Assembly: GCA_964357975.1 (NCBI GenBank)
Contig: CAYHNG010000002.1
Coordinates: forward strand, 4,560-68,559
DNA length: 64,000 nucleotides
DNA from: an uncultured Pseudomonadales bacterium
GTDB lineage: Bacteria > Patescibacteriota > Microgenomatia > UBA1400 > MFAQ01
Direction of reading: 5' to 3'
The translations under genes were made by a program, and so were the position numbers. Position 1 is the stretch's first letter. Every line of letters starts with the position of its first letter. Below the pieces are notes generated by a model, which did not search any database, was not told the origin of the DNA, and worked only from the letters and a program-made list of their open reading frames with translations. Shown one piece after another: positions 11,373 through 56,854 of this stretch.

Positions 11373-12410
11373 TTATTTCAAGATGACTATCTTCTCAAGG
11401 ATGAAGTTTATTTCATCAAGAGTCTCAGCATCGACGGCTGTTGGGCTGATGACAGTTAAATAGCCGATCGAAGTCGGGGAAGTGTATTTACCCCCCGAAA
11501 TACTTTCGCAAACATCAAAGATTGAAGATGTATCGTCCGTGACTTTCTTGGCCCACCTCCAGGTGATAATATCTCGCTTAATCAAACTTCGAAAATCAGA
11601 GTAACGAACCGTCATCTCACCCCCGTCTGGGTCAGCCGGAAAAAGACACTCACTGACTTCTCCGGGAGCCTGACGGATGGTCAAAGTTGTGGTGCCTTTT
11701 ATTAGAGTAAGGGTGGAGTTTCCACCATCTTTAGAACTTGGAAAATTTCGATATTCCTTGATAGACCAAATCGTCGGATAATAAAATTGGTAAGAGGTAA
11801 ACAGAGGAAGCGGAGATCTAACCGTCATCATATTCCATCTAAGGTTCAGAAGTGAGGATGGTGTGGCTGTGGGAGCGGGAGGCAGAGTAATTTCGATGAC
11901 AGGTGAAGTCTCAAGTCCAGTTTCAGAAGGATTAACTTCCGGGTTGAGTCCGACATTTTCGGTAAACGGGGCAGAGGGAGACATGGGAAGGAAACGCGAC
12001 GCAAGAACACCAAGCAAGGTACCAAAAAGGATTAGGGCAACACCGGTCAACAAAGTTTTTGTTAGAGAAGGTGAGGATTTTTCAGTAGGTGGAAGGAGGG
12101 GTGGAGTTTCCTGATGACTTGTTTCCGGAGGCGTTATCCACAAGGATGTCGGGCTTGGCGGTGTTGTCGGAACCGAGAGTTGAGGATCCTGGAACGGAAT
12201 TTGAGGGGGTTCGACTCGAGGAGTGCCCACCGGCACTGCTGATTGGTCCCCTCCCCATGACTGAGGTGGAGTGTAACTGACTCCCAATCCGATTGACGGG
12301 TCCGGATCCGAAACTACCGTCCTGGAAGTTTCTGGACTCTCCATCAGGGAATCTTCCGGAGGGATCATTAGTTCTTGATCTTTCTGGTTTTGGTTCTGGT
12401 TCGGATCCAT
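11373..12410 (-). CDS. Pro-rich membrane-anchored hypothetical protein
   Basis: ORF with a central TM helix and Pro/Thr-rich N-terminal half. The 5' end overlaps the upstream gene by 329 nt, so the start is uncertain. Confidence 0.35.
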   Translation of the reverse strand: MDPNQNQNQKDQELMIPPEDSLMESPETSRTVVSDPDPSIGLGVSYTPPQSWGGDQSAVPVGTPRVEPPQIPFQDPQLSVPTTPPSPTSLWITPPETSHQETPPLLPPTEKSSPSLTKTLLTGVALILFGTLLGVLASRFLPMSPSAPFTENVGLNPEVNPSETGLETSPVIEITLPPAPTATPSSLLNLRWNMMTVRSPLPLFTSYQFYYPTIWSIKEYRNFPSSKDGGNSTLTLIKGTTTLTIRQAPGEVSECLFPADPDGGEMTVRYSDFRSLIKRDIITWRWAKKVTDDTSSIFDVCESISGGKYTSPTSIGYLTVISPTAVDAETLDEINFILEKIVILK

Positions 12411-15400
12411 GTTTGGTAGATTGATTGGTAGATAGAAGACCTTTTTCCATGAGCAATCGGAGGAGACTGGTGATCATTCTTAACCGGCCTCCGGAATTGG
12501 TCTCTTTTATTAGTTTATACGCTTCGTCGTAATTTAGCCATTTGACGTCGTCAAACTCTGTGGCGCCGATGGTGATATCGGTAGTGTTGGCTTCTGAAGT
12601 GTAAAAGTAATAATATTTTCCTTTCATCACTACCGGATCTCCCGAATCAGTCACCAAATCTCTTAGTCCTTGTTTTGAAGGAGGAAATTCTATTTTGTCG
12701 ACGGATATCAATTTAATATCCTGACTGCATTTTTTTACAAAATCCTCCGTAACCTCTTCTCCCATTTCCTGAAAGAAGGTTTCCTTGATTGTTTTTTTGT
12801 TGTCCACTCCTCCCTGAGGAAGAGTCCATTGATTAAACGATTTCTGATAAGTCAGAAGAATTTTTTTATCATGCAAGAAACAGCCAACAACACTTGGACG
12901 AAGTCCTTGATTCCTTAGGGCATCAAGATCCCCGAGAGTGGGTTCCTTGAGAGGGGTTGGTGAAACAACTGATGGAGGGAGATTTCTCGACTCCGCTCGA
13001 AATGACGAATCGGTCGGAGATTGCTTCGTTGTTTCACTTCTTCCGCCAGAGGCGGACTGATGCGCAATGACGGGTGTTGATTTTGTGGAAATAGTTTGTC
13101 CGGTGGTTTGAATGGCGGGTGTTGATGGCGGTTTGGAGATAGAGGGAATGACATCCGGAGTAGACACTGTCGATGACGATGGAGGGATTTTGAAAGGGTT
13201 GGGTTTGGATAAGGCCGGAGTGGGAGGAAGTTGGGGGGTGTATGGCGCCTTTGGTGGTGTGGGGGCTGTGGGAGCAGGTGAATTATCAGGGGTTCTAAGT
13301 GCCTTCGGAATATATGGGGGTTCGGTGTATCGTTTGGGAGCCGGGGTCATAATGGCGGTAACTTGAGACATATCCATGGGCTCGATTTTCCGATAGTACT
13401 TCTCATAAGTGGCTTCGAGAACTTTTTCTTTCTGATGAGTGCGAGTATCGGGTAAAGGTAAACCGTAGGATGAAAAAGGTTGTGTCATCTGAGAATCGAC
13501 AGACATTTTCATGGCCAATTGATATTTACCCAACCCAACGAGATCATCTGCGGTGTACAGATTGTTTAACTCTTTCATGATTCGGTCAGCATCTGAAGCT
13601 CCCACCACGTAGCTCATGACCGTACCAACGTTGCCAAAAATGGCGTTTTGAATCTCTTCAGGTAGTTGGGCGATATACTGGTTGGCAAGGACCAGGCCCA
13701 ATTTATATTTTCTGGCCTCAGAAAGTATTTTGACAAAAGAGGAGGTGGCGAAGTTTTGGAACTCATCGACATAGAGAAAAAATTCACGACGTTCCTCCTC
13801 CTTAATGTGGGCGCGATTCATGGCGGCAATTTGAATCTGAGAGATAAACATGGCGCCAAGTAAGGCCGCGTTGTCTTCTCCAATCTTACCTTGCGGAAGA
13901 TTGAGAATAATGATTTTGCCGGCATTCATCATATCCTCAAAATCGACAGTGCTTTTGGGATGGTTGATGATATCTCGGATGGTGGGTGAGGTGACGAATT
14001 GACCAACCTTGTTAAGAATTGGGGCAATTGCTTCCGTTTGGAATTTCTCCGAGTATTTGTCGTATTCATCACGCCAAAAGTTGACAAGTATAGGATCGGT
14101 AACATGAATAAGGCATTCTTTTTCTCGAAAATCTTTATTGGTTAGAATACGAGGGACATCGGCAAGGGTGGTTTCCGGTTTGTAGACTAACGTAAGTAAG
14201 GTGTTTCTGAGGATATACTCAAGACGAGGGCCCCAGGAATTGCCGTAGAGTTTACTAAAGATCGAGACAATACTGGAGGCGACCATTTCGCCTTGTGTCG
14301 GGTTTTTGACATACAGAGGGTTCATCCAAAATGATATCCCAGGTACTGAAGGATCCAGATAAGCAACGTCATTAATACGACTCTCCGGAATGTATTCAAG
14401 AAGAACTTCGGCCGCGTCACCGTGTGGATCAACAAAAGCAACCCCTTCCCCGTGTTGGATGTCATTAATGGCCATGCGACCAATAAGAGTTGACTTTCCT
14501 GTTCCTGACTTCCCCAAAATGTAGGTATGACGGAGGCGGTCGATCCCCTTCTTCATACCGAAGACGGCCAGATGGTTTTTATATTCCGTCTTGGCGAAGA
14601 AATTATAGAGATGCTTTTCACTATCAGGAATTCCCTCATCAACCGGTAAATTGGTGGGCGCTTCACCTTTGAGAGTTTTTCCCCAGGCAATCCCCTTGAT
14701 CGGAGCAAGTAAGACTCCCGGAAGGTGATACATGGCAGCGATCTCACCGTAATTAAGATATTGATACTGATTTGAATATTTCGCGGAGCGATCAAGCATC
14801 ATCTGACGGAGTTTCGTCAGAGAACCGGAGAATTTGTGTTTTTTTAAAGCTAAACTGTTTCCTTCAGACAAGGAATAAGTTCCAAAAGAAGCGGCCAATT
14901 GTGATAATAGCTGTTTTGAGGTGGCTTGATCGGGGGTAATTGCCGCAAGTCGAATATCACAACTAAAAGCTTGGAATAATAATTTTTTTTCGATAATGGA
15001 CTTGTAAGGACTTGGTTTACTTTTGGCCGGATCCGTAGCGGTTGCCGGAGTAACGGTCTCGAGAGAAGACCGAACTGATTTCTGCCAATTTTTGGGGGCA
15101 GCGAACAGACAAATTTGAATAATAGCGGCCTGGCCCGCCGGGACTCTTGCCAAACTGCCCAAGATGGAAGCCATCTGGTCCACCTTATCATCCAAAGTAC
15201 TATTCAGAGAAAGGTTGGATGGTCCGGTGAGAGCCAGCTGGCCAATAGCAGGTTGTCCATAATTCAACCAATCTGGAAGATAATCCTTCATGGGGGTGAT
15301 AAGGGCGGTGGGATACTGGGCGGCTATCTGGGCGCGAACAAGGTGTTCCAGTCGCTCGGGGCAGGCTATGATAAAGAACGTGGTTTGATTAAGGTTGACG

Positions 15401-15561
15401 ATCTCCAAACAAATAGTTTCATGGGTGCCCAACAGACGGTCCATAAAACCGGCCTTGAGTGAAGTTCTCAGAGAGGAAAGAAATTCGATGAAGGCTGCCT
15501 GCCCGGTAAGGGAGTCTTTCGCTGGACGAACCTGCAAAACAGAGTATTTGGGCAAGGCCAT
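12082..15561 (-). CDS. Soluble VirD4/TraD-family (T4CP-like, HerA/FtsK-related) P-loop ATPase with Pro-rich linker and C-terminal degenerate Nudix-like domain
   Basis: Walker A ILGKSGTGKSTLI, VDPHGD, Walker B YVDEFQNF, ARKYKLGLVLANQ C-terminal block. Long P/S/T linker, then WTLPQGGVDNKKTIKETFFQEMGEEV (Nudix-like box with R to Q). No N-terminal TM helices. Confidence 0.55.
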   Translation of the reverse strand: MALPKYSVLQVRPAKDSLTGQAAFIEFLSSLRTSLKAGFMDRLLGTHETICLEIVNLNQTTFFIIACPERLEHLVRAQIAAQYPTALITPMKDYLPDWLNYGQPAIGQLALTGPSNLSLNSTLDDKVDQMASILGSLARVPAGQAAIIQICLFAAPKNWQKSVRSSLETVTPATATDPAKSKPSPYKSIIEKKLLFQAFSCDIRLAAITPDQATSKQLLSQLAASFGTYSLSEGNSLALKKHKFSGSLTKLRQMMLDRSAKYSNQYQYLNYGEIAAMYHLPGVLLAPIKGIAWGKTLKGEAPTNLPVDEGIPDSEKHLYNFFAKTEYKNHLAVFGMKKGIDRLRHTYILGKSGTGKSTLIGRMAINDIQHGEGVAFVDPHGDAAEVLLEYIPESRINDVAYLDPSVPGISFWMNPLYVKNPTQGEMVASSIVSIFSKLYGNSWGPRLEYILRNTLLTLVYKPETTLADVPRILTNKDFREKECLIHVTDPILVNFWRDEYDKYSEKFQTEAIAPILNKVGQFVTSPTIRDIINHPKSTVDFEDMMNAGKIIILNLPQGKIGEDNAALLGAMFISQIQIAAMNRAHIKEEERREFFLYVDEFQNFATSSFVKILSEARKYKLGLVLANQYIAQLPEEIQNAIFGNVGTVMSYVVGASDADRIMKELNNLYTADDLVGLGKYQLAMKMSVDSQMTQPFSSYGLPLPDTRTHQKEKVLEATYEKYYRKIEPMDMSQVTAIMTPAPKRYTEPPYIPKALRTPDNSPAPTAPTPPKAPYTPQLPPTPALSKPNPFKIPPSSSTVSTPDVIPSISKPPSTPAIQTTGQTISTKSTPVIAHQSASGGRSETTKQSPTDSSFRAESRNLPPSVVSPTPLKEPTLGDLDALRNQGLRPSVVGCFLHDKKILLTYQKSFNQWTLPQGGVDNKKTIKETFFQEMGEEVTEDFVKKCSQDIKLISVDKIEFPPSKQGLRDLVTDSGDPVVMKGKYYYFYTSEANTTDITIGATEFDDVKWLNYDEAYKLIKETNSGGRLRMITSLLRLLMEKGLLSTNQSTKHGSEPEPKPERSRTNDPSGRFPDGESRNFQDGSFGSGPVNRIGSQLHSTSVMGRGPISSAGGHSSSRTPSNSVPGSSTLGSDNTAKPDILVDNASGNKSSGNSTPPSTY

Positions 15562-15582: not shown

Positions 15583-16194
15583 CTAGACAGTGGGAGTAGC
15601 AGAAAGAATACTCTGCCCGGAACGTCGAGCGTCAGACTCGATCACTTTGACTTCGGAAAACAGAACATTTTCGATAATCAAGGCACTAGTGTGAAAGAGA
15701 TCGTTTAATTCAGCTTTAAGCTGTGATTCGATTTTAGAGCGCTCGGCTCCGATTTCTTTAGAATCGTGCTTGCTAAAGGCTGAGGCGATCCGGCTCCGAG
15801 AGTATGGCCGGATGACTTTTGAGACAAAATTGTCACCAATATTTTCCCATAGAAGAGGAGCATTGGCTTTGTCCAAACGGAAAAGTATGGAGCCTTCGAT
15901 GGAGATGGTTTTGTTGTCTTTGGTGGTGGCAATGACCGGTTCGTCACCAAGAGCTTCCTTAATCGAAAGATCGAAGCCGTGCCTAATGGTATATTCCAGA
16001 ACCTGAGCGTTGAAGAGTTTAGCAATTTGCCAAAAGGGAATTTTGAGATGAAGACCAGGTCCCCAGACACGTTTAAGGACACCCGCTCCCCGATCGTAAA
16101 CACAAGCTACATGTCCGGGTGGAACGGAGATAAAGAAGCCACCAACGACTTCATCGACAAGAAAAGATACTACTAATTTATCAAAATCAGCCAT
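15583..16194 (-). CDS. SPFH/band-7 domain protein (stomatin/prohibitin-like)
   Basis: Domain-like pattern only; no catalytic motifs. Confidence 0.4.
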   Translation of the reverse strand: MADFDKLVVSFLVDEVVGGFFISVPPGHVACVYDRGAGVLKRVWGPGLHLKIPFWQIAKLFNAQVLEYTIRHGFDLSIKEALGDEPVIATTKDNKTISIEGSILFRLDKANAPLLWENIGDNFVSKVIRPYSRSRIASAFSKHDSKEIGAERSKIESQLKAELNDLFHTSALIIENVLFSEVKVIESDARRSGQSILSATPTV

Positions 16195-35648: not shown

Positions 35649-35852
35649 ACACGTGACTGGTGAGTATTATACCTGATAAATGTCCGGAGCGAATGGATGG
35701 TAATTTTGATGGAGACCAATAAGGAACCTCCTCGCAGGACTACCTACAAGGAAGATCCTTGTAGGGGAGCTGGATTTGTGATGTGGATAGTATTATTCTT
35801 TTTGGGTAATTTGGGGGTTGTAAAAATGTGGATAAGTAGTGAGAATGGGCGT

Positions 35853-37235
35853 ATGGACAGTGAGAAGTTATGGCATAGCATTTGCGGTGAGTTGGGCGTT
35901 TCGATGTCTCCCGCCAGTTTTGCAGGCTTTATCAAGCCTTGTTTCTTGCGATCGGTAACTCCGATTGATGATCAACGACTGCTTTTGGAGTTGGCGGCTT
36001 CATCTGTTTTTTTGAGTCACACCATCGAGACCAAGTATTACAGTCTCATCAAACAAGCCGCCGAAAAAATTTCCGAAAAGAAGTGTGATATCGCTTTGAT
36101 TGTGGTTGAAGCTACCAAAGAAGTTAAGTTGAGTAAAAAGGAAATCAATAAGATGGGGGAGGTAAATGAGACCAGCATTGGACTATTTACCCCACAGGAG
36201 GAGAATAAACAAACCGGAACCAATCTGAATCCCCGTTATGTTTTTGAGTCATACATGGTGGGAAGTTCGAATAGACTGGCTTTCGCCGCCGCCAAAGCAG
36301 TGGTCGACTATCCCGGCACCAGACACAACCCACTATTTATCTATGGGGGAGTCGGGGTTGGAAAGACTCATTTGATGCATGCGGTAGGACATGAACTGGT
36401 CAAAAAAGGAGTGGGTAAAGTAGTCTGTGTGACAAGTGAACAGTTTACGAACGATTTGGTCGGTTCGTTTAAATCCAAAATGACGGATGCTTTTAAGAAA
36501 AAATATCGACAGGTAGGAGCATTGCTGGTAGATGATGTGCAGTTTTTTGGGGGAAAAGATTCAACACAAGAAGAGTTCTTCCATACCTTTAACGAACTGA
36601 CAAATAAACAAGCGCAGATTATCATGACGAGTGACCGAAAACCACAAGAGATCGTCGGTTTGGAGGATAGACTACGAAGCCGCTTCTTGGGTGGCATGAT
36701 GGTGGATATTGGTTTACCGGACTACGAGATGAGACTGGCGATTTTGCGGCAGCGAGCACTAGATATTAAAGCAGAAGTAGAAGATAGTGCCTTTGAACTA
36801 ATTGCCAATAGCTATCCAACAAATGCCCGCGAGCTGGAAGGAACTTTCGTCAGGCTAGCCACAGGTGCCAGTATTGACGGGGGAGTCTTAACCAGAGAAA
36901 TGGTACAGCAAACAATGGGACTTCCGGCCAATACTGTGAAAGACATTAAAGTGCGACCGATCAAGGTGATCTCGACAGTCGCCAAGTATTTTGATTTCAG
37001 AAACAAAGATCTCTTGGGGGAGAGTAGGAAGGCCGACTTGGTAGTGGCGAGACACATTGCCATGTATATTCTGAGAGAAACACTAAAGCTTAATCTGACT
37101 GAAGTCGCGGAGTTGATGGGAGGCCGAGATCATACTACAGTGATGCATGCATGCGAGAAAATGGAGCTAGAAATTGAGAAAAATATGGATATCAGGCGTA
37201 AAGTAATGGCTCTGAAACAGGCGTTATACACCTAA
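35853..37235 (+). CDS. dnaA: Chromosomal replication initiator DnaA
   Basis: Walker A GGVGVGKTHLMHAVG and C-terminal DNA-binding domain. Start set at MDSEKLW (35853) because the longer track ORF from 35697 contains DnaA boxes TGTGGATAG and TGTGGATAA and odd hydrophobic sequence. Confidence 0.8.
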   Translation: MDSEKLWHSICGELGVSMSPASFAGFIKPCFLRSVTPIDDQRLLLELAASSVFLSHTIETKYYSLIKQAAEKISEKKCDIALIVVEATKEVKLSKKEINKMGEVNETSIGLFTPQEENKQTGTNLNPRYVFESYMVGSSNRLAFAAAKAVVDYPGTRHNPLFIYGGVGVGKTHLMHAVGHELVKKGVGKVVCVTSEQFTNDLVGSFKSKMTDAFKKKYRQVGALLVDDVQFFGGKDSTQEEFFHTFNELTNKQAQIIMTSDRKPQEIVGLEDRLRSRFLGGMMVDIGLPDYEMRLAILRQRALDIKAEVEDSAFELIANSYPTNARELEGTFVRLATGASIDGGVLTREMVQQTMGLPANTVKDIKVRPIKVISTVAKYFDFRNKDLLGESRKADLVVARHIAMYILRETLKLNLTEVAELMGGRDHTTVMHACEKMELEIEKNMDIRRKVMALKQALYT

Positions 37236-37759: not shown

Positions 37760-38878
37760 TTGAATATGAAGATAACTGTATTGTCAACCGACTTAAAGAA
37801 ATATCTAGGAATTGTAAATCGAGGTATTGGGGTAAGACCTCAGCTGCCTATTTTGTCGGGTGTTCTTTTGAAAGTGACAAAGGAGGAAGTAAATTTGGTG
37901 TCGACTGACTTGGAAGTAAGTTTTTGGGTGAAACTACCGGCCAAGATAGATGAGGAAGGAGAGATGGTAGTACCGGCAAAGCTTTTTGGAGAATTGGTGG
38001 CCAGTTTGCCGGCTGGAAATGTAACTCTTTCGGCAGAAAAAAACACTTTAACAGTTTCCGCCAAAGGTATTAACGCAGAAGTTGTAGGACAAGGGGTGGA
38101 GGATTTTCCAAGTATTCCTAGAGCCAAAAAACCTCAAATTACCTTAAAGAGTGGAGATTTTAGACAAAAGATGGATCGGGTGTGTATTTCGGCGGCACGT
38201 GATGATACAAGACCGGTCTTGACCGGTGTCTTGTGGGAGTTGGAAGAGAATAAGACTATTTTGGCGGCGACAGATGGATACAGATTGGGAGTTGATAAAT
38301 TAAATGTTGGCAAAACAACTATTGAGAAGAACACCCGTTTTATTTTACCGGCACGATCTCTTCAGGAAATATCCAAAGTCCTGGCTGAGACAGGTGAGGA
38401 TAATTTTGGTATTGAATTTGACAAAGAAAATCAACAGGTGATCTTTACCATTGCCGATATGGAAGTCTCCTCCCGCCTGATTGCAGGCGAGTTTCCGCCC
38501 TATCAACAAATTATGCCGAATACTTACTCAACAAAGGCGGTATTTAACAGGGAAGAGCTACTAGAAGCGGTCAAGAGGGCCAATTTGTTTGCAAGGGACA
38601 ATGCCAATATTGTAAAAATGACCATCGAAGGTGAAAGACTAATTGTGAAAGCGGAAAGTAGTCAGCTTGGAAGCAATTCGACAGAGATCGAAACGGAAAT
38701 TGAAGGAGAAGGTTTGACCGTCGCTTTTAATGCCAGATATCTATTAGATTATCTGGGAGTGAACAATGCGGAGAGAGTGGTTTGGGAGACGGAAGGGGAA
38801 CTCAAACCAAGCGTCTTCAAGAGAGAGGATGATGACGGCTGGATTCAGGTAGTAATGCCGGTTAGGGTGCAGAATTAG
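37760..38878 (+). CDS. dnaN: DNA polymerase III beta sliding clamp
   Basis: MNMKITVLSTDLKKYLGIVNRGIGVRPQLPILSGVLLKV. Confidence 0.85.
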   Translation: MNMKITVLSTDLKKYLGIVNRGIGVRPQLPILSGVLLKVTKEEVNLVSTDLEVSFWVKLPAKIDEEGEMVVPAKLFGELVASLPAGNVTLSAEKNTLTVSAKGINAEVVGQGVEDFPSIPRAKKPQITLKSGDFRQKMDRVCISAARDDTRPVLTGVLWELEENKTILAATDGYRLGVDKLNVGKTTIEKNTRFILPARSLQEISKVLAETGEDNFGIEFDKENQQVIFTIADMEVSSRLIAGEFPPYQQIMPNTYSTKAVFNREELLEAVKRANLFARDNANIVKMTIEGERLIVKAESSQLGSNSTEIETEIEGEGLTVAFNARYLLDYLGVNNAERVVWETEGELKPSVFKREDDDGWIQVVMPVRVQN

Positions 38879-39875
38879 ACCAGGCTTCCGGTGGTAACTG
38901 TAACTGTGGGTAGATCCTGGTGATGGCCTGATCTTTTGAAAGTATCCAAACCAGACCTTTATTTTCCGAGAAAAGCACCATGTCGTTTTTTTGATTTACT
39001 GACGGTTTTATTTTCAGATTTAGTCTATTGATTTGTGAAGAGCTGGTGATAATTTGTTTGAATTGCTGTTTGCCGATATCGACCAACATGATGAAGTCGA
39101 GTAACCTTGGTTTGGTGACTTTTTCGACTAGATATAATTCGTCTTTTAGCCAAAAAGTGATAGATTCTTTGGTCGTATCGTCGAGCTTTATTTTGTTTAA
39201 TCCTTCGATATAAAGATACAAATACTCATTGTCTGTTGCGACGACGACCTTATTGTTTGAAGTGATTGAGATCGGATTGAACTGATTGGCTGTTTTAGCT
39301 ATCTCCGATTTTTGATTAGTGAGAAGGTTAACTACGTATAGTGATTTCTTGTCCTCAGACAAGGCGATAATCGAATTTGGTTTTTCGTACCAAATATAAC
39401 TAAAATACTCTCTTTCTTTTTGAGTGATGTCTTTTTCGACTAGAGTTTTCAAATTTAAAATTTTTTCTTTTTCAGGGGAGATTACCAAAGCCTCGCCATT
39501 GCTATTCAGGAGAGCAACTTCATTATTAGCAAGTTTTTTTATGGCTGTATTTGTGTAGGGGTTAAATATTTGTTGGTCCTTTATGACAATAGGAATATCA
39601 CCCATCCAACCTAATGATATGCTTTTATCTGAATTTGGAAGATGCCAAAACATAAACTGATACTGTTTCATGAACTTTTCAAACTCTGATTCGATTTGCA
39701 TAGTTGGTTGGACGGTAGGTTGCGTTTTTGTAGGTTCTAGAGGCTGGGGCGATGATGAAAATGGTTTGCGACTTTTGGTGAGGGTGTTTTGAGCGAATAG
39801 AATTAGTATGAGGAAGATAATTCCAATTACGATTATTAGCGTGGTTTTTTTGATTCGAGCTAGATTTAAGGACAT
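38862..39875 (-). CDS. Membrane-anchored extracytoplasmic protein; by position a PrgL/VirB8-like candidate
   Basis: N-terminal TM anchor, Pro-rich linker and beta-rich body. Translationally coupled (10-nt overlap) to the upstream hydrolase gene. No diagnostic motif. Confidence 0.35.
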   Translation of the reverse strand: MSLNLARIKKTTLIIVIGIIFLILILFAQNTLTKSRKPFSSSPQPLEPTKTQPTVQPTMQIESEFEKFMKQYQFMFWHLPNSDKSISLGWMGDIPIVIKDQQIFNPYTNTAIKKLANNEVALLNSNGEALVISPEKEKILNLKTLVEKDITQKEREYFSYIWYEKPNSIIALSEDKKSLYVVNLLTNQKSEIAKTANQFNPISITSNNKVVVATDNEYLYLYIEGLNKIKLDDTTKESITFWLKDELYLVEKVTKPRLLDFIMLVDIGKQQFKQIITSSSQINRLNLKIKPSVNQKNDMVLFSENKGLVWILSKDQAITRIYPQLQLPPEAWSNSAP

Positions 39876-42607
39876 TGTTGTTTGACTCGATTAATAAAAT
39901 AATCCAAAAATTCTACACCAGGATCATTCTTTCCCGGTCGTAATTCGTAATGCCCAAAGATCTGAGTGTAGGGAATATGGTACTGCTTCATCATAAAACA
40001 AGTAGAATTGACGGAAGACTGAATTTCTGCTTCACTGGGTGATTTTTCCTCCGGTTTGGTGGGAGATGTTCCGGGCGGAATAAACCAAGCTCCTACCATT
40101 TCATTGTTGAGACAGTAGTTATTTTCATTCCCCCCAACACAGTAGGCGAGCTCCGCCTTCTTTTCCCACATTTGTTGCCATTGCTGAACCGAGCCGTCTT
40201 GGTCGGTGCCAATTTGGCAAGAGAGACCCCTTTCTACAAGGGTATTGTAGGTGACATCATTGTTGGTCCAACCGCCACTCCAGTGGATGGTGATTTTGGT
40301 GGGGATGATACAGTAGCCGGATCTTCCTGGTCCAGTCAGAAGTTTTTTAACTACAGGGAATGATCCTGCCTGTACCATAATTTCGGCACCAGAGTCTTCT
40401 CCACAGTCCAGATTGTATACTCCACCACCAGGTTCTGTTCCTGGTCCCGGTCCACCACCCGGCCCTCCACCACCGCCATATTCTGCATAATCGACCTTAC
40501 TAAGACTATCGAATTGAACAATGGTGGAGAGGATGGGAGCAATTAAATAAGATATGGCAACATAAAGTCCTACGACAATGATAGCTCCGATAATGATACC
40601 TATGGCAGAAATCACGGCAATCTGGACAGATCTTCTGAGAATGATTAGTCCACGTATAAAAGTGGTCCCTGCGGTGACGGCGACCGCTCCTGCAGCAACG
40701 ACGGGAATAATCAAATCTCTAGATCTGAATTTGTCTCCCCAGCCCAGTTCTCTCCAAGTATTATCTAATCCTTTTTTGGCTAGACCGATGGTTTGTTCAG
40801 CAACAAAAATGATGGCTTGAATGGCAACATCAACGATGACTCCTAGTCCGGGAATAATGGCATTGAGAGACTCGGCCGTCACACTAATACCAAGCTTGAC
40901 AGCGGCCCAGGTAACGACTTTGACAGCCGCTTTGGAAAGAGCTTGAGAAGCTAGCTTTTTGACTCCATCTTTAAGACCCTCCCTCAACAACAGGTTAGGG
41001 GCATTTTTGAGAGCCTCACTCCCGAATCTTTCAACCAACCTCTTGGCTATTTGTTCGCCGGCTTTTTTACCGGCCCATTGTTTGAGAGATCCAACCGGGT
41101 TCGTAACTATACCGATGATTTGGTTGCCTTTACTTACAGCCTGAAGAACATCTTTGCCGAGTTTGGAGTTTTCTATCTCACGGATAGAGCGTCTGGCGGC
41201 TTGAAAAACTTTGGTATTGTTGGCGAGAAACTTAGCGGTAGCCGAATTGGGGTTGGTGGTGGCGTATTTTTCGGCTTGGCGAAGAACACTACCGGAAACT
41301 CCTTTGGAATAGGCCAGTATGGCCTGACCTTGACCTCCTCCAATGATGGCGGCGGCTTGGGCACCTTCATAACTGGCATACTGGTGAATTCCGGGAATGT
41401 CTTTTTGAATAACAGTGATCAGTCCGGCGATTTTGTCCAGATCCGAAAAACCTCTGGGTTCGATTCCTTTGCTCTTGAAGGCATTATCGTATAGATTCTC
41501 CTGGATCTTAAAAACTTTGTCGTTAGCAGCATTAGAGAATTCCAAGAGATCCTGGTCTTTTTTTTGATGATCGGCTATTGCCGAAGTGTGTTGTTTGTAT
41601 CTCTCTGATTGGGAGTCAACAAAATCAGTAAACCGGGTGGATGTTTTGTTGAGACTAGAGGTGAGACTAGAGTTGACTTTGAGCAATTCAGCAAGTTGTT
41701 TCTCTTCGGAAGCAGAAAGGGTGGCTTTTGAATGCAGAATATCGATGGCGGCTTCGTTTTGGGACAACTTATCTTCAATGTCTCTGATTTCCAGTTCGAT
41801 ATCATTAATTTCTTCAACTACTTCCGAGACAAAAGAAGTGGAAATATCTTTCACTCCTAGTTGAAGAGAAACTGTTTGAATAGCAACATCAAGATCGATG
41901 ATACCGATGGTGTTTAGTTCGACTGCCTGCGAAATTATTTGGTTTTGAAGATGTGGTGAGAGTTCTTCAAAACCTTCATAGGTAAAGGCTATACGCTGGA
42001 CAGCTTTGTAAGATGGTGCAAGTGTATTTTTTACTGAGCCATCTTTGGGTGAGCCGAGATCAACAATGGTTTTGTCGATATCACGAAATTTTTCTCCCGC
42101 CTCTTCGCGTTCACGGCGATTGGCCATGATTTGTTCGCGGATATTGGAATGAGCGAGAGCAATCTTGACTTGTTCGGCGACGGTGCGTTGACCACTGGAC
42201 TTAACCTCCTTTTCGTTTAACCGAGCTTGATTTTGACGATATTCTTCGACGAGACCTTCAATTTCCGGGGGAACAGAAGTCTCCTCCTTAACAGATTGTC
42301 TTCCTCCTTCTCCCTCGTCCTGATTTGAAAGCCAACTGTAGAAATTGATAATTTCTTGTATTTCAACAGCATCAGAAACAAACTTTTTAAAATTATTGGT
42401 GTTAACTAAATGATTTTCAACCAGAGAAGTGGGCCATAAAGTGATCTTTTTGTTGATCTTCTTAAGTTGTTTGAAATAGTTGTGGTAATAACCAGAGCCG
42501 ACACTAAACCATTGAAAGATATCATTCTGATTTTTTTCGGTTATTTCGCTTCGGAGTGCCTTTTGAACTTGTCCCAGCTCGTATATTTCTGTCTCGTAAT
42601 TGGCCAT
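39866..42607 (-). CDS. PrgK-like T4SS cell-wall hydrolase: long coiled coil, TM segments, Gly/Pro linker, C-terminal amidase_2/PGRP-like domain
   Basis: Central TM helices (VAAGAVAVTAG...IGIIIGAIIVVGLYVAI), a GGGGPGGGPGPG linker, and C-terminal ITIHWSGG...FGHYELRPGKNDPG (amidase_2-like). Sits immediately downstream of VirB4. Confidence 0.5.
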   Translation of the reverse strand: MANYETEIYELGQVQKALRSEITEKNQNDIFQWFSVGSGYYHNYFKQLKKINKKITLWPTSLVENHLVNTNNFKKFVSDAVEIQEIINFYSWLSNQDEGEGGRQSVKEETSVPPEIEGLVEEYRQNQARLNEKEVKSSGQRTVAEQVKIALAHSNIREQIMANRREREEAGEKFRDIDKTIVDLGSPKDGSVKNTLAPSYKAVQRIAFTYEGFEELSPHLQNQIISQAVELNTIGIIDLDVAIQTVSLQLGVKDISTSFVSEVVEEINDIELEIRDIEDKLSQNEAAIDILHSKATLSASEEKQLAELLKVNSSLTSSLNKTSTRFTDFVDSQSERYKQHTSAIADHQKKDQDLLEFSNAANDKVFKIQENLYDNAFKSKGIEPRGFSDLDKIAGLITVIQKDIPGIHQYASYEGAQAAAIIGGGQGQAILAYSKGVSGSVLRQAEKYATTNPNSATAKFLANNTKVFQAARRSIREIENSKLGKDVLQAVSKGNQIIGIVTNPVGSLKQWAGKKAGEQIAKRLVERFGSEALKNAPNLLLREGLKDGVKKLASQALSKAAVKVVTWAAVKLGISVTAESLNAIIPGLGVIVDVAIQAIIFVAEQTIGLAKKGLDNTWRELGWGDKFRSRDLIIPVVAAGAVAVTAGTTFIRGLIILRRSVQIAVISAIGIIIGAIIVVGLYVAISYLIAPILSTIVQFDSLSKVDYAEYGGGGGPGGGPGPGTEPGGGVYNLDCGEDSGAEIMVQAGSFPVVKKLLTGPGRSGYCIIPTKITIHWSGGWTNNDVTYNTLVERGLSCQIGTDQDGSVQQWQQMWEKKAELAYCVGGNENNYCLNNEMVGAWFIPPGTSPTKPEEKSPSEAEIQSSVNSTCFMMKQYHIPYTQIFGHYELRPGKNDPGVEFLDYFINRVKQQCP

Positions 42608-42609
42608 AG

Positions 42610-44514
42610 TTAGGGATTAGATGGCTCGGCGATTTCTTGGGGTTGGTCCTGAGAAGCGGCTTCGGCGGCGGCACGAAGTTTGTCTTGCTTTTGCCGTTCA
42701 AGAATCTCAGCCGGCTTACTGGTAGCCAGAGCGTGTTCATCAGCAGAGGAAATAATTTTGATGGCCACGTGATTCATGCCAGCAAAGAAGATACCTTCTC
42801 CAACGCCGGCCGAAAGAAGTAATTGTTTCTCCCCTTGAGAGAGATAGAAGACTTCGGAGATTTGATTGATAGCGGCGGATGACTGTTTGAGTAGTAATTT
42901 GAGAGCCGAGTTGGTGATGATGGCTTTGCCGTAGGCTGAACCCAGAAAGTCGTCAACGTTTTGTGAAATGATGGAAACACCGAAGTAATACTTACGTGCG
43001 CGTTTGACAAAGCCTTGAAGGATTTTGGCTGAATCTTCATAGCGCATCAAGTACCAAGCTTCATCAACGACGAGCATTCTTTTGCGAAGATTTTTGCGAA
43101 CTTCGTTCCAAACAAAGTCCAAAATCATAAACATAATGATGGGCCGAATCTCATCGGCGGTATCCCGGAGGGTAAAAACAGTAATGGGAGCATTGATATC
43201 AATATTGCTCTGCTGATCGAAGATACCTTTGACGGCACCCATGACGAAACGTTCAAGCCTGGCGGCTAGTGTTTTACTAACAGCTTCTTCCATACCGATC
43301 AGGGAACGATAAAGATCTTCCATGCGTGGTGGTTCGAGAGTGTGAGTGGATGGGTCTTCGGTAATGCCTTTTTGGCGATAAGTGAGAACAAGAGCGCGGT
43401 TCATGGTAGCTTCTTCAATGGGATCCATTTGACCAATCATGATTTTGAGAAGAGACATGAGGAAAAGGTATTTGTAGCCCATTTCGTCTTCGGTACTCTC
43501 TTTGGGTCGAGCAATTTGGAAGGGATTAATTTTGTGGGAGGCGCTGGCCGAAAAAGAGAGGTAGTTACCACCGACCGATTTGGTGACCATTTCGTACTCG
43601 TTTTCAGGGTCGAGAATAATTACCTGGCAATCGAACATAAGAGATCGAAGAATCTCGAGCTTAACAGCAAAAGATTTTCCGGCACCGGAAGTGGCTAAAA
43701 TGAGCATGTTAGCATTTTCGAGGGAGAAACGGTCGAAAATAACGAGAGAGTCGTTATGGGCGTTGATCCCGTAAAGAATTCCTTGATTATCGGAGAGTTC
43801 GGAGGAAGTAAAAGGGAAAGTCGTGGACAGAGCAGTGGTGTCCATATTTCTTGTGAGCATAAGTTTATCCTTGCAATAGGGAAGAGTGCTTTTGAATGCA
43901 TCTTCCATTGAGAGGGATGCAATCTTGCTGATGATTAAAAGTGACGCCAACATAGATTGAATTTGGGCGGTAGAGGTATCCAATTCTTTTTCGGATTCGG
44001 CGGAGATGCTGACATAGAGTGAGAATTGAAAAAACTTCTCGGCGCCTTTGACAAGCTGAGATTGGAGAACTTTGGCGTCTTCGAGACCGGCTTCGGTAGC
44101 GGCACGAGGAATGCGACCTCGTTCGATATCGGTGTTTATTTCAGCTTCCATCTCGGCAATACGGCGGCGTAAACTATCGAGAGTATCTTTGGAGTCTGAG
44201 GGGTAGATAAACATGGAAATGTCCAAAGAGTGGTTGAAGTTGATTAAAGGAGAGAGCCAGTTGGCGGAAACGTAGCGAGGATAACCGGTGACAAAAAGAG
44301 TACGGATATAAACATCGTCAATTTTGATGTGAGAAAAATCGACTTCAACGGCAGAAGGGGCGATAATATCTTGGATAGATTGACTAGAAGCGGCGGATTT
44401 TTGATCTACAGTTGAGGGAGTAGCTTGCGTGACATTAGAAACCGGCGGGGTGACGGGTGTAGAGGTAGCCGGTACGCTTTGTTTTTTGCCAAGAGAAAAA
44501 AGGTTCAAAGCCAT
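42610..44514 (-). CDS. VirB4/PrgJ/TrbE-family T4SS ATPase
   Basis: Walker A ILATSGAGKSFA, ILDPENEY and Walker B MLVVDEAWYLM (the DEAW hallmark), with a VirB4-like N-terminal domain. Confidence 0.75.
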   Translation of the reverse strand: MALNLFSLGKKQSVPATSTPVTPPVSNVTQATPSTVDQKSAASSQSIQDIIAPSAVEVDFSHIKIDDVYIRTLFVTGYPRYVSANWLSPLINFNHSLDISMFIYPSDSKDTLDSLRRRIAEMEAEINTDIERGRIPRAATEAGLEDAKVLQSQLVKGAEKFFQFSLYVSISAESEKELDTSTAQIQSMLASLLIISKIASLSMEDAFKSTLPYCKDKLMLTRNMDTTALSTTFPFTSSELSDNQGILYGINAHNDSLVIFDRFSLENANMLILATSGAGKSFAVKLEILRSLMFDCQVIILDPENEYEMVTKSVGGNYLSFSASASHKINPFQIARPKESTEDEMGYKYLFLMSLLKIMIGQMDPIEEATMNRALVLTYRQKGITEDPSTHTLEPPRMEDLYRSLIGMEEAVSKTLAARLERFVMGAVKGIFDQQSNIDINAPITVFTLRDTADEIRPIIMFMILDFVWNEVRKNLRKRMLVVDEAWYLMRYEDSAKILQGFVKRARKYYFGVSIISQNVDDFLGSAYGKAIITNSALKLLLKQSSAAINQISEVFYLSQGEKQLLLSAGVGEGIFFAGMNHVAIKIISSADEHALATSKPAEILERQKQDKLRAAAEAASQDQPQEIAEPSNP

Positions 44515-44543
44515 GATTTAAGTATAACTGAAGTTAGGAAGTT

Positions 44544-45194
44544 TTAGGAGGCGTTTGATCTTCCTGGAGTGATTGCCTGAGTAACACTGCCTTGATTGTA
44601 GATAGTATAAAAGAGAGTGACCAATTCACTGGTAGTTAGCTGGTTAGCCTTAAGACCGATCCTGGCGAACTGACGAATAATGTGATCGCGTCTGGGGTAG
44701 AGAGCCATAGAAGCTTTCTCTTCGATATACTGCAGATCGAAAGGAGGTTTTTGGGGTGATTTGGATAGAGGATTGAAGCTGGATTTGGTCAGACCCAGTT
44801 CGACCGCAGAGAAAGAGACGATAACGTAAAACTTTTTTTCGAGGACACGATTTTCTTTGACAAGAGACTTTACAAATTGCCGATAGGAAAGAAGCTGTTC
44901 TTTAACCTTCTGCGAAGGGGTAATCTGGATACGATTATCCAGAAGGTTAATGTAATCGGATATATTTTTGCGCTGTGATCTGATGAGAATTTGAATAGAG
45001 AAAGACAGCGAATTTAACAAACCGGCATAGCCGTAAATGGTAGCATCTTGCTCTTCTTCGGAAAGCAAATTGAAGTTGATGGCAGTGGTTTTGAGAACCA
45101 ATGAACAAGAACCATCTTTCAAAAAAATCAAATGGTTTTTGATGGTGTAGATGTCTAGGCTTTCCTGTGTTGAGGATTTGATGTTTTCGGACAT
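44544..45194 (-). CDS. T4SS-associated hypothetical protein (216 aa)
   Basis: Tightly packed between the PrgI-like gene and VirB4. No motif recognised. Confidence 0.4.
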   Translation of the reverse strand: MSENIKSSTQESLDIYTIKNHLIFLKDGSCSLVLKTTAINFNLLSEEEQDATIYGYAGLLNSLSFSIQILIRSQRKNISDYINLLDNRIQITPSQKVKEQLLSYRQFVKSLVKENRVLEKKFYVIVSFSAVELGLTKSSFNPLSKSPQKPPFDLQYIEEKASMALYPRRDHIIRQFARIGLKANQLTTSELVTLFYTIYNQGSVTQAITPGRSNAS

Positions 45195-45196
45195 GA

Positions 45197-46201
45197 TTAG
45201 ATGGCTTGAATTTTAAGAGGTCGAATAATGGCTCCGGAAAGGTCGAGAGAGTATGGGGAAAAAGTAAAATCTTCTTTTTCGGCCAGGATTTGATAAAGGC
45301 CATTTTCCAAAGGGCGGGCAAACATAAACTGGCCGAGTTTGTTACTTTTGGTAGCTCGGGAGGTGAGTCCGTTGTGTTGAATTTCCACCAGGACTCCGTC
45401 GAGAATTTTTCCTTCCGGGGTCAGAGTCAGGCCGACAAGAGTGTTGGGGGTCGTAGGGGTGAAAGGAATGGGGAGCTGGGCTACTTGGGAAGTTGTTGGT
45501 TCAGGGTTGCTGGTTATTTCAACCACAGGCTGATCTGCCTTTGGCTGAGGTGCGGGTGTGATGGAGGGGGATTTCTCCACTACGGTCGAAATGACGGGAG
45601 TGACTGACGCGGTGGGGGTGGGTGTAACGGATTCCGGTAGAGGAGCATTTGGGGTGATGATGACAGGAGTGATTTGGACAACGGGGGGTGACGTAATAGG
45701 GGTTGTGGAGTGAGATTCCTCCACTCGGGTACCAGCGGCCTCCGCTCCCGCCTGCAAAAGCTGTGCTTTAGTGTCTGCGGGCAAGTCGGTCGGAATGACA
45801 GATGGGGAAGTATCGGTGACACCAGTAGAGAGCTCGATACGAGCGTTAGAGACGGCTTGAGTACCAATATTGGGTCCGGTAGGTAAGGCCATATCCTCAT
45901 CTACTACTTTGGAATGTCTCCAAATATATTGAGTAGGTGAATAAATTGAGCGGATAAAAGCAAGAATCCAGACATCCAAAGAGCGTCCTTGAACCGGGAC
46001 AAAAGCCATACCTACTCCAAGAACAATAAAAAGAAAGGAGAGTGGATACTTAAAGAAGAAAGGCAATGGCAAACTGTAAATTACGATAGCCAGAACAATA
46101 GAGATGCCAAGTGAGGCGAACTGTTTGATGGTCATGTCACCGATCAGGCGGAAGCGGTAGGAACTGATGTCTTGTGGTAGTGGATGTTGTTGGATGGCCA
46201 T
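45197..46201 (-). CDS. PrgI/VirB3-like two-TM protein with long Pro/Thr-rich extracellular tail; contains two in-frame family-A repeats
   Basis: N-terminal FRLIGDMTIKQFASLGISIVLAIVIY...LSFLFIVLGVGMAF (PrgI-like two-TM module). The tail includes the repeat-encoded segments TPVISTVVEKS and SVIPTDLPADTKAQLLQAGAEAAGTRVEESHS. Confidence 0.45.
   Translation of the reverse strand: MAIQQHPLPQDISSYRFRLIGDMTIKQFASLGISIVLAIVIYSLPLPFFFKYPLSFLFIVLGVGMAFVPVQGRSLDVWILAFIRSIYSPTQYIWRHSKVVDEDMALPTGPNIGTQAVSNARIELSTGVTDTSPSVIPTDLPADTKAQLLQAGAEAAGTRVEESHSTTPITSPPVVQITPVIITPNAPLPESVTPTPTASVTPVISTVVEKSPSITPAPQPKADQPVVEITSNPEPTTSQVAQLPIPFTPTTPNTLVGLTLTPEGKILDGVLVEIQHNGLTSRATKSNKLGQFMFARPLENGLYQILAEKEDFTFSPYSLDLSGAIIRPLKIQAI
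45562..45600. repeat. Family-A repeat, copy A7 (in frame inside the PrgI-like gene)
   Basis: GGAGGGGGATTTCTCCACTACGGTCGAAATGACGGGAG. Confidence 0.65.
45705..45800. repeat. Family-A long variant, copy A8 (in frame inside the PrgI-like gene)
   Basis: GTGGAGTGAGATTCCTCCACTCGGGTACCAGCGGCCTCCGCTCCCGCCTGCAAAAGCTGTGCTTTAGTGTCTGCGGGCAAGTCGGTCGGAATGACAG. Confidence 0.7.
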
Positions 46202-46506
46202 GTCGTAGTGCGAAGTGCTTGGTTATTGGTTGCTGGTTCGATGAGTCTAGTTAAGTATATCTTGTCTGGTGGAATTTGGGAAAAATATTCTATATATCTG
46301 CTGAGTTAAAATGTTAAGATGAGAGTGAGATGCAATTTTTGTTGTGCAATTACAGATGGAAAGTTTGGAACAAGTTTTTTTATCGGGAGTTCGATGATGA
46401 TCTGGACTACGATGCATCAATTGATCCTCGCAAACTACATAATAAAAAAAGAACAAAGAAGAAATTTGAGGGGGGGAAAAAGGGAGGAGTTAAACGAGGA
46501 GAAGAG

Positions 46507-56465: not shown

Positions 56466-56497
56466 TGAAACTATTATACTTTGTATCGGGTGAGAGT

Positions 56498-56854
56498 TTA
56501 GGTGCCAAATTGGGTAACCTTGGCACCGGTAAAGTTCTCGATGAGAACTAAGGCCAGCCAAACCACCGCGAGGAGAATCAAGCCAATAACGGCCCAGGTA
56601 AACATGGAATAGGCACTGGCGACTGCTTTGGGTTCGGCGCCGGCGGAGATCAAACGAATTCCGGCCATAATGATTATTCCGACAGCAACGAGAGCCAATA
56701 GGGCAGGGATGGGTTGAAGAATGTTTTTAAAGAGACAGGTGATACCTTGTATCGAAGCGACATCGGTAGCATCGACTCCAGCAACATTTTGACCAACACA
56801 TTCTCCAGTCCAATTACTGGCGGCATAGACTTGGGAGACGAGTTGGAAGGACAT
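56498..56854 (-). CDS. VirB2/TrbC-like pilin paralog 1 (divergent, 2 Cys)
   Basis: Leader MSFQLVSQVYAA|S, two hydrophobic helices, loop ISAGAEPKAV. Confidence 0.5.
   Translation of the reverse strand: MSFQLVSQVYAASNWTGECVGQNVAGVDATDVASIQGITCLFKNILQPIPALLALVAVGIIIMAGIRLISAGAEPKAVASAYSMFTWAVIGLILLAVVWLALVLIENFTGAKVTQFGT

Follow-up and report, generated by a model that had tools for sequence, protein, structure and literature searches.

The locus raises the question of what a coupling-protein-type ATPase does when it is fused to a Nudix domain and is encoded far from the secretion genes of its chromosome. The window (the whole stretch of 64,000 nucleotides of contig CAYHNG010000002.1 that was analyzed) contains an open reading frame (ORF) of 1159 amino acids (aa), described in an earlier note on this DNA as an orphan, soluble VirD4/TraD-like ATPase fused to a proline-rich linker and a degenerate Nudix-like domain. 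We found the ORF as it had been described, and all of the motifs that had been quoted for it (GKSGTGKST at residues 350-358, VDPHGD at 377-382, DEFQNF at 599-604, ARKYKLGLVLANQ at 616-628, and the Nudix-box segment WTLPQGGVDNKKTIKETFFQEMGEEV at 912-937). It is well supported that the gene is the Microgenomatia form of a lineage of VirD4/TrwB-type ATPases with an N-terminal DUF8128 domain, with or without a transmembrane helix before it, that is inherited across the Patescibacteria. We favor, at roughly even confidence, the view that its product is a motor exapted from conjugation that perhaps still docks peripherally on a type IV secretion system (T4SS).

The 1159-aa ORF is a genuine gene under purifying selection. 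It is far beyond what chance would produce because there are more than 100 full-length homologues and because substitutions in the Nudix region follow the codon pattern of a protein-coding gene (fractions of 0.18, 0.08, and 0.51 at ATPase-frame codon positions 1, 2, and 3, where all such fractions were counted). A protein identical to that of the window (P0001) is present in public data; its precomputed Pfam annotation lists PF26449 (DUF8128), and the precomputed family architecture is PF26449 followed by PF10412/PF01935 and PF00293. The full-length AlphaFold2 (AF2) model, made with 58 homologues in the alignment, had a mean predicted local distance difference test score (pLDDT) of 75.9, with three confident modules (residues 1-288, 300-738, and 870-1045) and two disordered stretches (739-868 and 1048-1159). 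Coordinates are in Table 1, in which T4CP stands for type IV coupling protein.

Table 1. Features of the ATPase gene and of other genes in the window.
Feature	Residues	Coordinates	Strand	Basis or remark
Whole ORF, 1159 aa: DUF8128, T4CP-type ATPase, linker, Nudix, run-on tail		12082-15561	-	
DUF8128 (PF26449) N-terminal domain, no transmembrane helix	1-288	14698-15561	-	
VirD4/TrwB-class RecA-like ATPase (predicted)	300-738	13348-14664	-	Pfam, PDB sequence matches, Foldseek
Walker A, GKSGTGKST	350-358	14488-14514	-	
All-alpha insertion in the ATPase, where T4CPs have their all-alpha domain	421-547	13921-14301	-	DSSP on the model
Walker B region, FFLYVDEFQNF	594-604	13750-13782	-	
Disordered P/S/T-rich linker	739-868	12958-13347	-	pLDDT, composition
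RppH-type Nudix hydrolase domain (predicted)	870-1045	12427-12954	-	Pfam, RppH alignment, model, codon pattern
Nudix box, G917-x5-K923-x7-Q931-E932-M-G-E935-E936-V-T938-E		12745-12813	-	
Run-on C-terminal tail and stop	1046-1159	12082-12426	-	Disordered, own frame unselected
Downstream gene, 345 aa: P-rich N-terminus, one transmembrane helix, C-terminal domain		11373-12410	-	
SPFH/Band_7 gene, 21 nt upstream of the ATPase ORF		15583-16194	-	Conserved neighbor in the clade
Chromosomal monoderm-type T4SS cluster next to dnaA/dnaN		38862-46201	-	Possible partner machinery
913-aa Amidase_2 protein in the T4SS cluster		39866-42607	-	
VirB4-type ATPase in the T4SS cluster		42610-44514	-	
PrgI/VirB3-like protein in the T4SS cluster		45197-46201	-	

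The ATPase core and the DUF8128 domain

Profile and fold matches support assignment of the ATPase to the VirD4/TraD/TrwB class, as the earlier note had proposed, and to neither FtsK nor HerA. The Pfam profile TrwB_AAD_bind matched residues 344-635 with 23.1 bits (gathering score of 20.5). T4SS-DNA_transf (18.9 versus 20.1) and TraG-D_C (21 versus 22) were just under their cut-offs for this protein and above them for individual relatives (e.g., P0096, P0094, and the Embleya coupling protein described below). Among 38 distant long DUF8128 proteins, at E ≤ 1e-3, TraG-D_C matched 33, TrwB_AAD_bind 31, and T4SS-DNA_transf 16, with a best E-value of 2.5e-13. Searches of PDB sequences matched Nudix proteins and TrwB, which was the sole ATPase among them. 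The Walker A and Walker B motifs are intact in a RecA-like nucleotide-binding domain and were invariant across 58 relatives (G350 to K356 and T358 for Walker A; Y597 to A605 for Walker B). The AF2 model has an all-alpha domain inserted in the nucleotide-binding domain and, by Foldseek, a TrwB-like overall fold. When the whole model was compared with the PDB, the top match was full-length VirB4/TrwK (E = 2.5e-14; ~860 aligned columns), followed by the T4CPs Cagbeta (target TM-score [TMt] of 0.57), TrwB (TMt of 0.62; root mean square deviation of 5.4 Å), and DotL (TMt of 0.54). There were also matches to HerA (4e-11), the DndH C-domain, and a HerA-containing anti-phage defense complex.

HerA, FtsK/SpoIIIE, and T4CP-type ATPases belong to the same additional-strand catalytic-glutamate (ASCE) P-loop superfamily. 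We rejected an FtsK/SpoIIIE or HerA identity: there was no FtsK_SpoIIIE match, DUF87 scored 21.2 bits, under its gathering score of 23.2, and the score with the HerA NCBIfam model was 10.1 versus 970. The neighboring genes (YidC, Band_7, and GroESL, with no NurA or segregation partners in the clade) also spoke against it. The earlier note had named a best score to FtsK/SpoIIIE or HerA, combined with chromosome-segregation neighbors, as the result that would overturn its assignment; we found neither in the window's clade.

The matches to HerA and its relatives also bear on whether the protein might serve in anti-phage defense, as an ATPase like HerA, mad8, or DndH that carries a Nudix effector. 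In addition to the Foldseek matches, PADLOC gave a mad8 match of 2.3e-14 and weak HerA and DndH matches. We consider a defense function very improbable. The matches were confined to the generic P-loop core, and the T4CP profiles and a homologue in a conjugative cluster account for the similarity. Furthermore, the gene is near-universal, vertically inherited, and in a fixed housekeeping block rather than a variable island.

The earlier note had overlooked that the N-terminal ~290 residues are a folded domain of their own, DUF8128. A DUF8128 search of 1.84 billion proteins found 391 representatives at E ≤ 1e-3, and the match was at or near the N-terminus among the 150 best proteins listed. Modeled alone, the domain had a pLDDT of 89.7 and a predicted TM-score of 0.89. 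Only TrwK/VirB4 chains matched this model at E ≤ 1e-3 with a probability of 1.00 (best E of 1.5e-6; query TM-score [TMq] of 0.49-0.56), and all remaining structural matches had a low probability or a low TM-score. There was no sequence-profile support for likeness to the VirB4 N-terminal domain, either by hhalign to the window's own VirB4 (7.8% and 0.1%, with Walker A alone aligned) or by a hidden Markov model search of PDB sequences.

The combination of DUF8128 with a VirD4-type ATPase was found in a conjugative cluster. A tblastn search of plasmids with the ATPase core identified a homologue (31% identity; E = 1e-54) on the Embleya sp. NBC_00896 plasmid NZ_CP108778. This protein (WP_331738717.1; 812 aa) has an N-terminal region of 421 residues that aligned with the DUF8128 profile with an hhalign probability of 97.6% (E = 2.6e-12), and its gene is in a cluster in the order PrgI, XF1762, VirB4-like ATPase, T4CP, Replic_Relax relaxase, and NlpC/P60. 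The presence of DUF8128 on the T4CP of a Gram-positive conjugative cluster argues that DUF8128 together with a VirD4-type ATPase is a genuine coupling-protein lineage of monoderm conjugation systems.

The window protein lacks the membrane anchor that many members of its family have. The Embleya protein has a hydrophobic helix at approximately residues 34-56, followed by RTRLRRRR, before DUF8128. We detected no such helix in the window protein: the highest 19-aa Kyte-Doolittle mean was 1.47, within a predicted beta-strand of the folded domain, and the folded soluble domain of the AF2 model begins at residue 5. A strong N-terminal transmembrane segment was present in 20 of 36 distant DUF8128 proteins. 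Counted by clade in the 80 best GTDB loci, an N-terminal transmembrane helix was present in 29 of 41 Saccharibacteria/Dojkabacteria-type orthologues versus 0 of 30 Microgenomatia-type orthologues. Judged from these predicted helices, the soluble state is a derived, clade-level loss. The description as soluble holds for the window protein, but not for the DUF8128 family, other members of which keep the helix.

The closest plasmid-borne relative of the ATPase core was on an alphaproteobacterial plasmid, Sulfitobacter mediterraneus NZ_CP081110 (99994-101181; L090; 38% identity; E = 1e-79). This ORF of 395 aa consists of the core only, lacks DUF8128, and has transposases and recombinases as neighbors. 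The context is uninformative, and the ORF may be what remains of a horizontal acquisition.

The Nudix domain, the linker, and the run-on tail

The C-terminal domain has a confidently predicted Nudix fold. A linker of 130 aa (52% P+S+T; pLDDT below 50), close to the length estimated in the earlier note, separates it from the ATPase. The Pfam NUDIX profile matched residues 889-1019 with 34.4 bits (gathering score of 21.1), and the domain was modeled with a pLDDT of ~94 as an alpha/beta/alpha fold with the box helix at residues 925-937, bearing out the note's expectation. A Nudix region was present in 104 of the 120 best relatives, which were from the Collierbacteria, Woesebacteria, and the Microgenomates group, were 44-100% identical to the window protein, and were mostly ~900-1240 aa. 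Some members of the clade, several of them fragments, are without it. A word-indexed search in which the Nudix domain was the whole query yielded only three fragments and was uninformative on stand-alone relatives. No second Nudix domain was found in the window with the Nudix-box pattern in the six-frame translation or with Pfam on 20 of the larger ORFs.

The Nudix domain is, by sequence comparison, divergent rather than decayed. The note had called it degenerate and had pointed out the change of R to Q (Q931) in the Nudix box; two further changes, K923 in place of E and T938 in place of G, had escaped it. The window box thus does not conform to the canonical GX5EX7REUXEEXGU. The Glu and Arg of canonical Nudix boxes form a pair, and in this family the pair drifts stepwise from E-R to E-K, Q-K, and K-Q. 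Among the 104 relatives, the canonical box (E, R, G) was present in 36, and the other types were E-R-T (13), E-K-T (11), Q-K-T (14), and K-Q-T (14), the last being the window type, which is at the tip of the Collierbacteria branch in a neighbor-joining tree of the core. The catalytic Glu residues E932, E935, and E936 are kept, and the E/E/E triad was intact in 76 of the 104 relatives, the window protein included; the middle Glu was substituted in some others (E-G-E, E-S-E). The residues of Escherichia coli RppH that we take to be catalytic (R8, Q37, E53, E56, E57, and E120) align with R888, Q916, E932, E935, E936, and E1002, and these were kept in 76-103 of the 104 relatives (the R8 equivalent in 101 and the E120 equivalent in 100). 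The substitution fractions given above for the Nudix region are those of the K-Q-T lineage, which indicates that even there the region is under strong purifying selection. The changes in the box are real, but with the triad kept, the domain under selection, and the box canonical in many relatives, the word degenerate goes too far.

The domain is, in its alignments, RppH-like without being an RppH equivalog. The full-domain family profile matched the lupin Ap4A hydrolase 1f3y (1.1e-6) ahead of RppH entries (~1e-5). This order of matches is one reason to consider that the fusion is a loose one, in which the Nudix domain serves nucleotide housekeeping or regulation and takes no part in processing nucleic-acid ends; it might hydrolyze Ap4A-type alarmones or damaged nucleotides or, catalytically weakened, act as a nucleotide sensor that modulates the motor. 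The drift of box positions in the clade, the swapped middle Glu of some relatives, the members without a Nudix domain, and the long flexible tether, which suggests no fixed geometry with the motor, are also consistent with this alternative. We find it doubtful, because the fusion persists from ~44% to 100% identity, the selection on the Nudix domain is strong, and another nucleic-acid module is found in the same place in sister proteins.

That module is an S1 RNA-binding domain. It directly follows the ATPase in P0112 (746-814), P0119 (751-823), and P0121 (782-850), and in P0116 it is in tandem with the Nudix domain (S1 at 760-830; NUDIX at 893-1020). In the window protein, the disordered linker takes up this position. 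Such a domain in the corresponding place of sister proteins speaks for single-stranded RNA or DNA as the substrate. Because two nucleic-acid modules were accreted at one site of a motor that has ssDNA-translocating relatives, the predicted substrate is the 5' end of a single-stranded nucleic acid, probably RNA.

Over the end of the ATPase ORF, selection acts on the frame of the next gene. The first 329 nt of the downstream ORF overlap the ATPase ORF in the +1 frame, as the earlier note had observed, taking the overlap as a hint of a mis-called start or a frameshift. Ahead of the ATPase stop, 295-430 nt of the +1 frame are free of stop codons in the window and in five relatives from the Collierbacteria (L005-L009). 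Alignments of the 345-aa downstream protein begin at its first residue in L005, L006, and L007. Its MDPNQ start is kept in all six genomes. In five, the start is 233-362 nt into the ATPase ORF; the L009 motif comes 15 codons behind an earlier ATG of the same frame, which is 419 nt into the ATPase ORF. Substitution fractions in the overlap were 0.48, 0.31, and 0.30 at the three positions, peaking at position 1 (chi-square p = 3e-9), and were 0.52-0.61, 0.37-0.39, and 0.23-0.36 in the downstream-only region, in contrast to those in the Nudix region. This pattern indicates selection on the downstream gene's frame. The switch of frame is at approximately residues 1041-1050, directly after the last Nudix helix, and the pLDDT of the tail is ~30. 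The last ~110 residues of the ATPase (1046-1159) are an unconstrained, disordered read-on and not a functional segment; the low-complexity tail that the note had listed is present and disordered, but is no more than this run-on. The later starts chosen by gene callers in L005, L008, and L009, which avoid the overlap, are probably wrong.

We rejected a frameshift or mis-called start, both of which are ruled out by the conservation of the overlap in six independent assemblies and the selection on the downstream frame. In a single sequence, the overlap and the low-complexity tail would look suspicious, as if separate ATPase and Nudix genes and the beginning of the downstream gene had been fused in a frameshifted or chimeric assembly. 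The probability of such an artifact is negligible: more than 100 proteins have the same architecture, the six assemblies share the region with two open frames, the linker and the Nudix domain are in frame throughout, and the codon-position statistics are those of real coding sequence.

Inheritance, gene neighborhood, and the T4SS

The core family is present across essentially all Patescibacteria. We found at least 513 relatives, in Collier-, Shapiro-, Gottesman-, Roizman-, Levy-, and Amesbacteria, in Saccharibacteria including Nanogingivalaceae, and in Dojka-, Nomura-, Kerfeld-, Buchanan-, and Peregrinibacteria. Of the 80 best GTDB loci, 4 have the Nudix form, which is confined to a subclade of the Microgenomatia. 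Gene order is fixed in the window's clade: a solute-binding protein, an NTP_transf_2-like protein, YidC, Band_7, the ATPase, zero to three small variable ORFs, GroES, and GroEL. The order is unchanged whether the C-terminus of the ATPase is Nudix, S1, or bare. Because the fusion is conserved and the neighborhood fixed, we conclude that this is a vertically inherited chromosomal gene, neither cargo of a mobile element nor an assembly artifact.

Other clades have other neighbors. A ~353-aa protein with Sigma70_r4 and HARE-HTH domains (e.g., L065:2598-3659, plus strand) directly precedes the orthologue on the same strand in 31 of the 80 GTDB loci, with a median gap of 45 nt. These loci (within L042-L089) are mostly from Saccharibacteria, with some from Nomura-, Kerfeld-, and Buchananbacteria; topoisomerase I is upstream in 21 loci, and ftsQ-like, murG, and ftsW genes are downstream. 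This neighborhood has a flavor of DNA handling and cell division, unlike that of the window. Orthologues of the Saccharibacteria-type loci (L042-L089) also extend further at the C-terminus: the part after Walker A has a median length of 496 aa, versus 378 aa in the bare Microgenomatia forms.

Many metagenome-assembled genome (MAG) records with clear Collierbacteria/Microgenomatia-type loci (L010, L012, L013, L015, L017, and others) are titled 'uncultured Pseudomonadales' or 'Gammaproteobacteria bacterium'. One such record has 75% identity and identical synteny. The taxonomy labels of these records look wrong.

The T4SS cluster of the window is 27.0 kb from the ATPase ORF, as measured to its VirB4-type ATPase. 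Pfam scans of 20 of the larger ORFs detected neither a relaxase nor a second T4CP in the window. The distance agrees with the earlier note, which had called the gene an orphan for it. In Patescibacteria, however, distance is the norm, as only 148 of 5,713 T4CP homologues are near virB4 (PMC12102498, Quinonero-Coronel et al. 2025). That study found T4CP homologues in 2,918 of 3,035 Patescibacteria genomes and VirB4 in 2,417, and reported that in S. epibionticum the t4cp homologue is non-essential and the T4SS essential; the S. epibionticum T4SS cluster has no recognizable coupling protein (Wang et al. 2023). Patescibacterial T4SSs are without relaxases, and it has been suggested that the T4CP was exapted (PMC12102498; Wang et al. 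2023), an exaptation of the t4cp homologue that, in the authors' words, 'cannot be ruled out' (PMC12102498).

These results bear on a tentative alternative to exaptation, that the protein is still the dedicated coupling protein of the T4SS at 38862-46201. DUF8128 would then replace the transmembrane anchor by binding VirB3/PrgI, VirB8, or VirB4, like the VirB4 N-domain. The S1 and Nudix modules would receive and process the substrate in relaxase-independent export of nucleic acid to, or import from, the host bacterium, and would take the relaxosome-binding role of the C-terminal tails of TraD/VirD4. The class of the ATPase, the family member in the canonical conjugative cluster of Embleya, and the VirB4-like fold predicted for DUF8128 are consistent with this, as is a T4SS cluster with no detectable T4CP or relaxase of its own. 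VirB4 homologues are less than 4 kb from the orthologues without a transmembrane helix in L015, L016 (Gottesmanbacteria), and L019, and published T4CP genes are often distant from virB4 (PMC12102498), so that distance is compatible with the alternative. On the other hand, the gene is not merely distant but in a clade-stable housekeeping block, the membrane anchor has been lost, and the neighbors in Saccharibacteria (the Sigma70_r4/HARE-HTH protein, topA, and ftsQ/murG/ftsW) are not T4SS genes. The excess of genomes with T4CP homologues over those with VirB4, and the dispensability of the homologue in S. epibionticum despite its essential T4SS (PMC12102498), also argue against an obligate partnership.

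Several features of the T4SS region are recorded here. The genes dnaA (35697-37235) and dnaN (37760-38878) adjoin the cluster; Patescibacterial T4SS genes have been published as often near dnaA. Four large ORFs flank the cluster: 749 aa (46330-48579, plus strand), 756 aa (48616-50886, plus), 612 aa (50893-52731, minus), and 1061 aa (53376-56561, minus). None of the four had a Pfam match above the curated cut-off at E ≤ 1e-3, and they may be lineage-specific T4SS or surface components. GC skew was positive in every 2-kb bin of the window, with a strong local maximum of 0.29-0.40 at 44-50 kb, and the cumulative skew was monotonic, with no inflection at dnaA. GC content dipped to 0.386 at 28-30 kb and to 0.395-0.415 at 36-40 kb.

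Proposed role and comparison with known systems

In the reading that we favor, of exaptation from conjugation, the protein would be an active NTPase, as its invariant Walker motifs indicate, and, by analogy with its family, a hexameric motor that engages single-stranded nucleic acid. The C-terminus in this clade has accreted nucleic-acid modules, either S1, S1 and Nudix (in one sister), or a 130-aa disordered tether and an RppH-type Nudix domain. The tethered Nudix domain, with its Glu triad (E932, E935, and E936) and the equivalents R888, Q916, and E1002, would act on 5'-(poly)phosphorylated ends, probably RNA ends, and strip off pyrophosphate or an NpnN-type cap. A substrate trimmed in this way would be ready to be threaded or to enter 5'-monophosphate-dependent decay. 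The motor is probably no longer an obligate component of the T4SS, and peripheral docking on the chromosomal T4SS through DUF8128, predicted to be VirB4-like, may persist.

Several points weigh against this reading. The predicted likeness of DUF8128 to the N-terminal domain of VirB4/TrwK is a fold-level lead, with a TMq of ~0.5. The best score with the NCBIfam RppH equivalog models was 29.7 bits, and their cut-offs are 116-259. Three altered signature positions of the Nudix box (Glu, Arg, and Gly) could mean that the predicted activity is reduced or altered. The pointer to RNA comes wholly from the identity of the domains (S1 and RppH-like); NudH-type enzymes also hydrolyze free dinucleoside polyphosphates, and S1/OB folds can bind ssDNA too.

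A broader proposal, which we regard as a long shot, is that the Patescibacterial DUF8128-T4CP is a relaxase-independent motor for RNA or other single-stranded nucleic acid, the S1 and RppH-type modules of which capture and de-pyrophosphorylate 5' ends, feeding or receiving through the essential T4SS. If true, it would provide a route for traffic of nucleic acids or nucleotides between the host and an epibiont reportedly unable to make nucleotides, and the domain accretions would be the first sequence-level clue to the cargo of the Patescibacterial T4SS.

The locus addresses the open question of the role of the near-universal Patescibacterial T4SS and the scattered T4CP homologues. That VirD4-like T4CP homologues are scattered in Patescibacteria, with an unclear role, has been published, and databases already have the label 'NUDIX domain-containing protein' for the fusion proteins and the Pfam entry DUF8128. 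The literature we searched contained no description of a coupling protein fused to a Nudix domain, in agreement with the earlier note; queries combining coupling protein with Nudix, or Nudix with ATPase and the Candidate Phyla Radiation, returned irrelevant papers. There was also no paper on PF26449/DUF8128, and the text of PMC12102498 gives no domain architecture and mentions neither Nudix nor DUF87, in a check that did not extend to S1 or anchor loss. Nothing in the searched literature says what DUF8128 is or connects it with the T4CP of a conjugative cluster, and neither the loss of the anchor in a clade nor the accretion of S1 and RppH-type Nudix domains is described there. The sharing of DUF8128, predicted to be VirB4-like, with an actinobacterial conjugative-cluster T4CP offers a docking hypothesis. 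The anchor appears to have been lost in one class-level clade, within which a subclade tethered S1, an RppH-type Nudix domain, or both to the motor; these modules suggest that what the motor handles is RNA or the 5' ends of single-stranded nucleic acid. If the modules are mere housekeeping fusions, the protein is an ordinary domain-accretion variant. Its significance would rise sharply if they turn out to determine which substrate the Patescibacterial T4SS handles.

The window protein can be compared with several known systems. With TrwB (R388; PDB 1e9r/1gki), Cagbeta (8dol), and DotL (6sz9), it shares a RecA-like nucleotide-binding domain with Walker A and B motifs and an all-alpha insertion. 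It differs from them in having the ~290-aa DUF8128 where T4CPs have an N-terminal transmembrane domain, in carrying a Nudix enzyme at the C-terminus, where they have a short tail that binds relaxosomes, and in being encoded outside the T4SS cluster, with no relaxase detectable in the window. With VirB4/TrwK (7o42, 7o43, and 8rtd), it shares a two-module layout of a soluble N-domain and a RecA-like C-domain. In contrast to VirB4, it scored 18.6 with TIGR00929 against a cut-off of 643, had no CagE_TrbE_VirB match, and falls outside the VirB4/CagE/TrbE profile families (TIGR00929, CagE_TrbE_VirB, and AAA_10). The model of its N-terminal domain matched that of VirB4 rather than HerA. The Embleya T4CP shares both the DUF8128-like N-region and the ATPase core; unlike the window protein, it has an N-terminal transmembrane-like helix and neither Nudix nor S1.

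The Nudix domain aligns end to end with E. coli RppH (4s2w/2kdv). Corresponding motifs (RppH first) are G-Y-R-P-N-V-G and G-L-R-P-S-V-V-G, W-Q-F-P-Q-G-G and W-T-L-P-Q-G-G, and E-F-D-G-W-R-W and E-F-D-D-V-K-W, with an E-x2-E-E helix in both; the family-level RppH-type motifs are G-[LY]-R-P-x-V-G, W-Q-x-P-Q-G-G, E-x2-E-E, and E-F-D-x-W-[RK]-W. In contrast to RppH and the Ap4A hydrolases, to which it is at best ~20-25% identical, the domain is tethered to a motor ATPase and is not free-standing. The published Patescibacterial T4CP homologues (PMC12102498) are chromosomal, usually far from virB4, without a relaxase, and possibly exapted. The window protein is like them in these respects and, by its T4CP profile matches and its distribution, appears to fit in that set.

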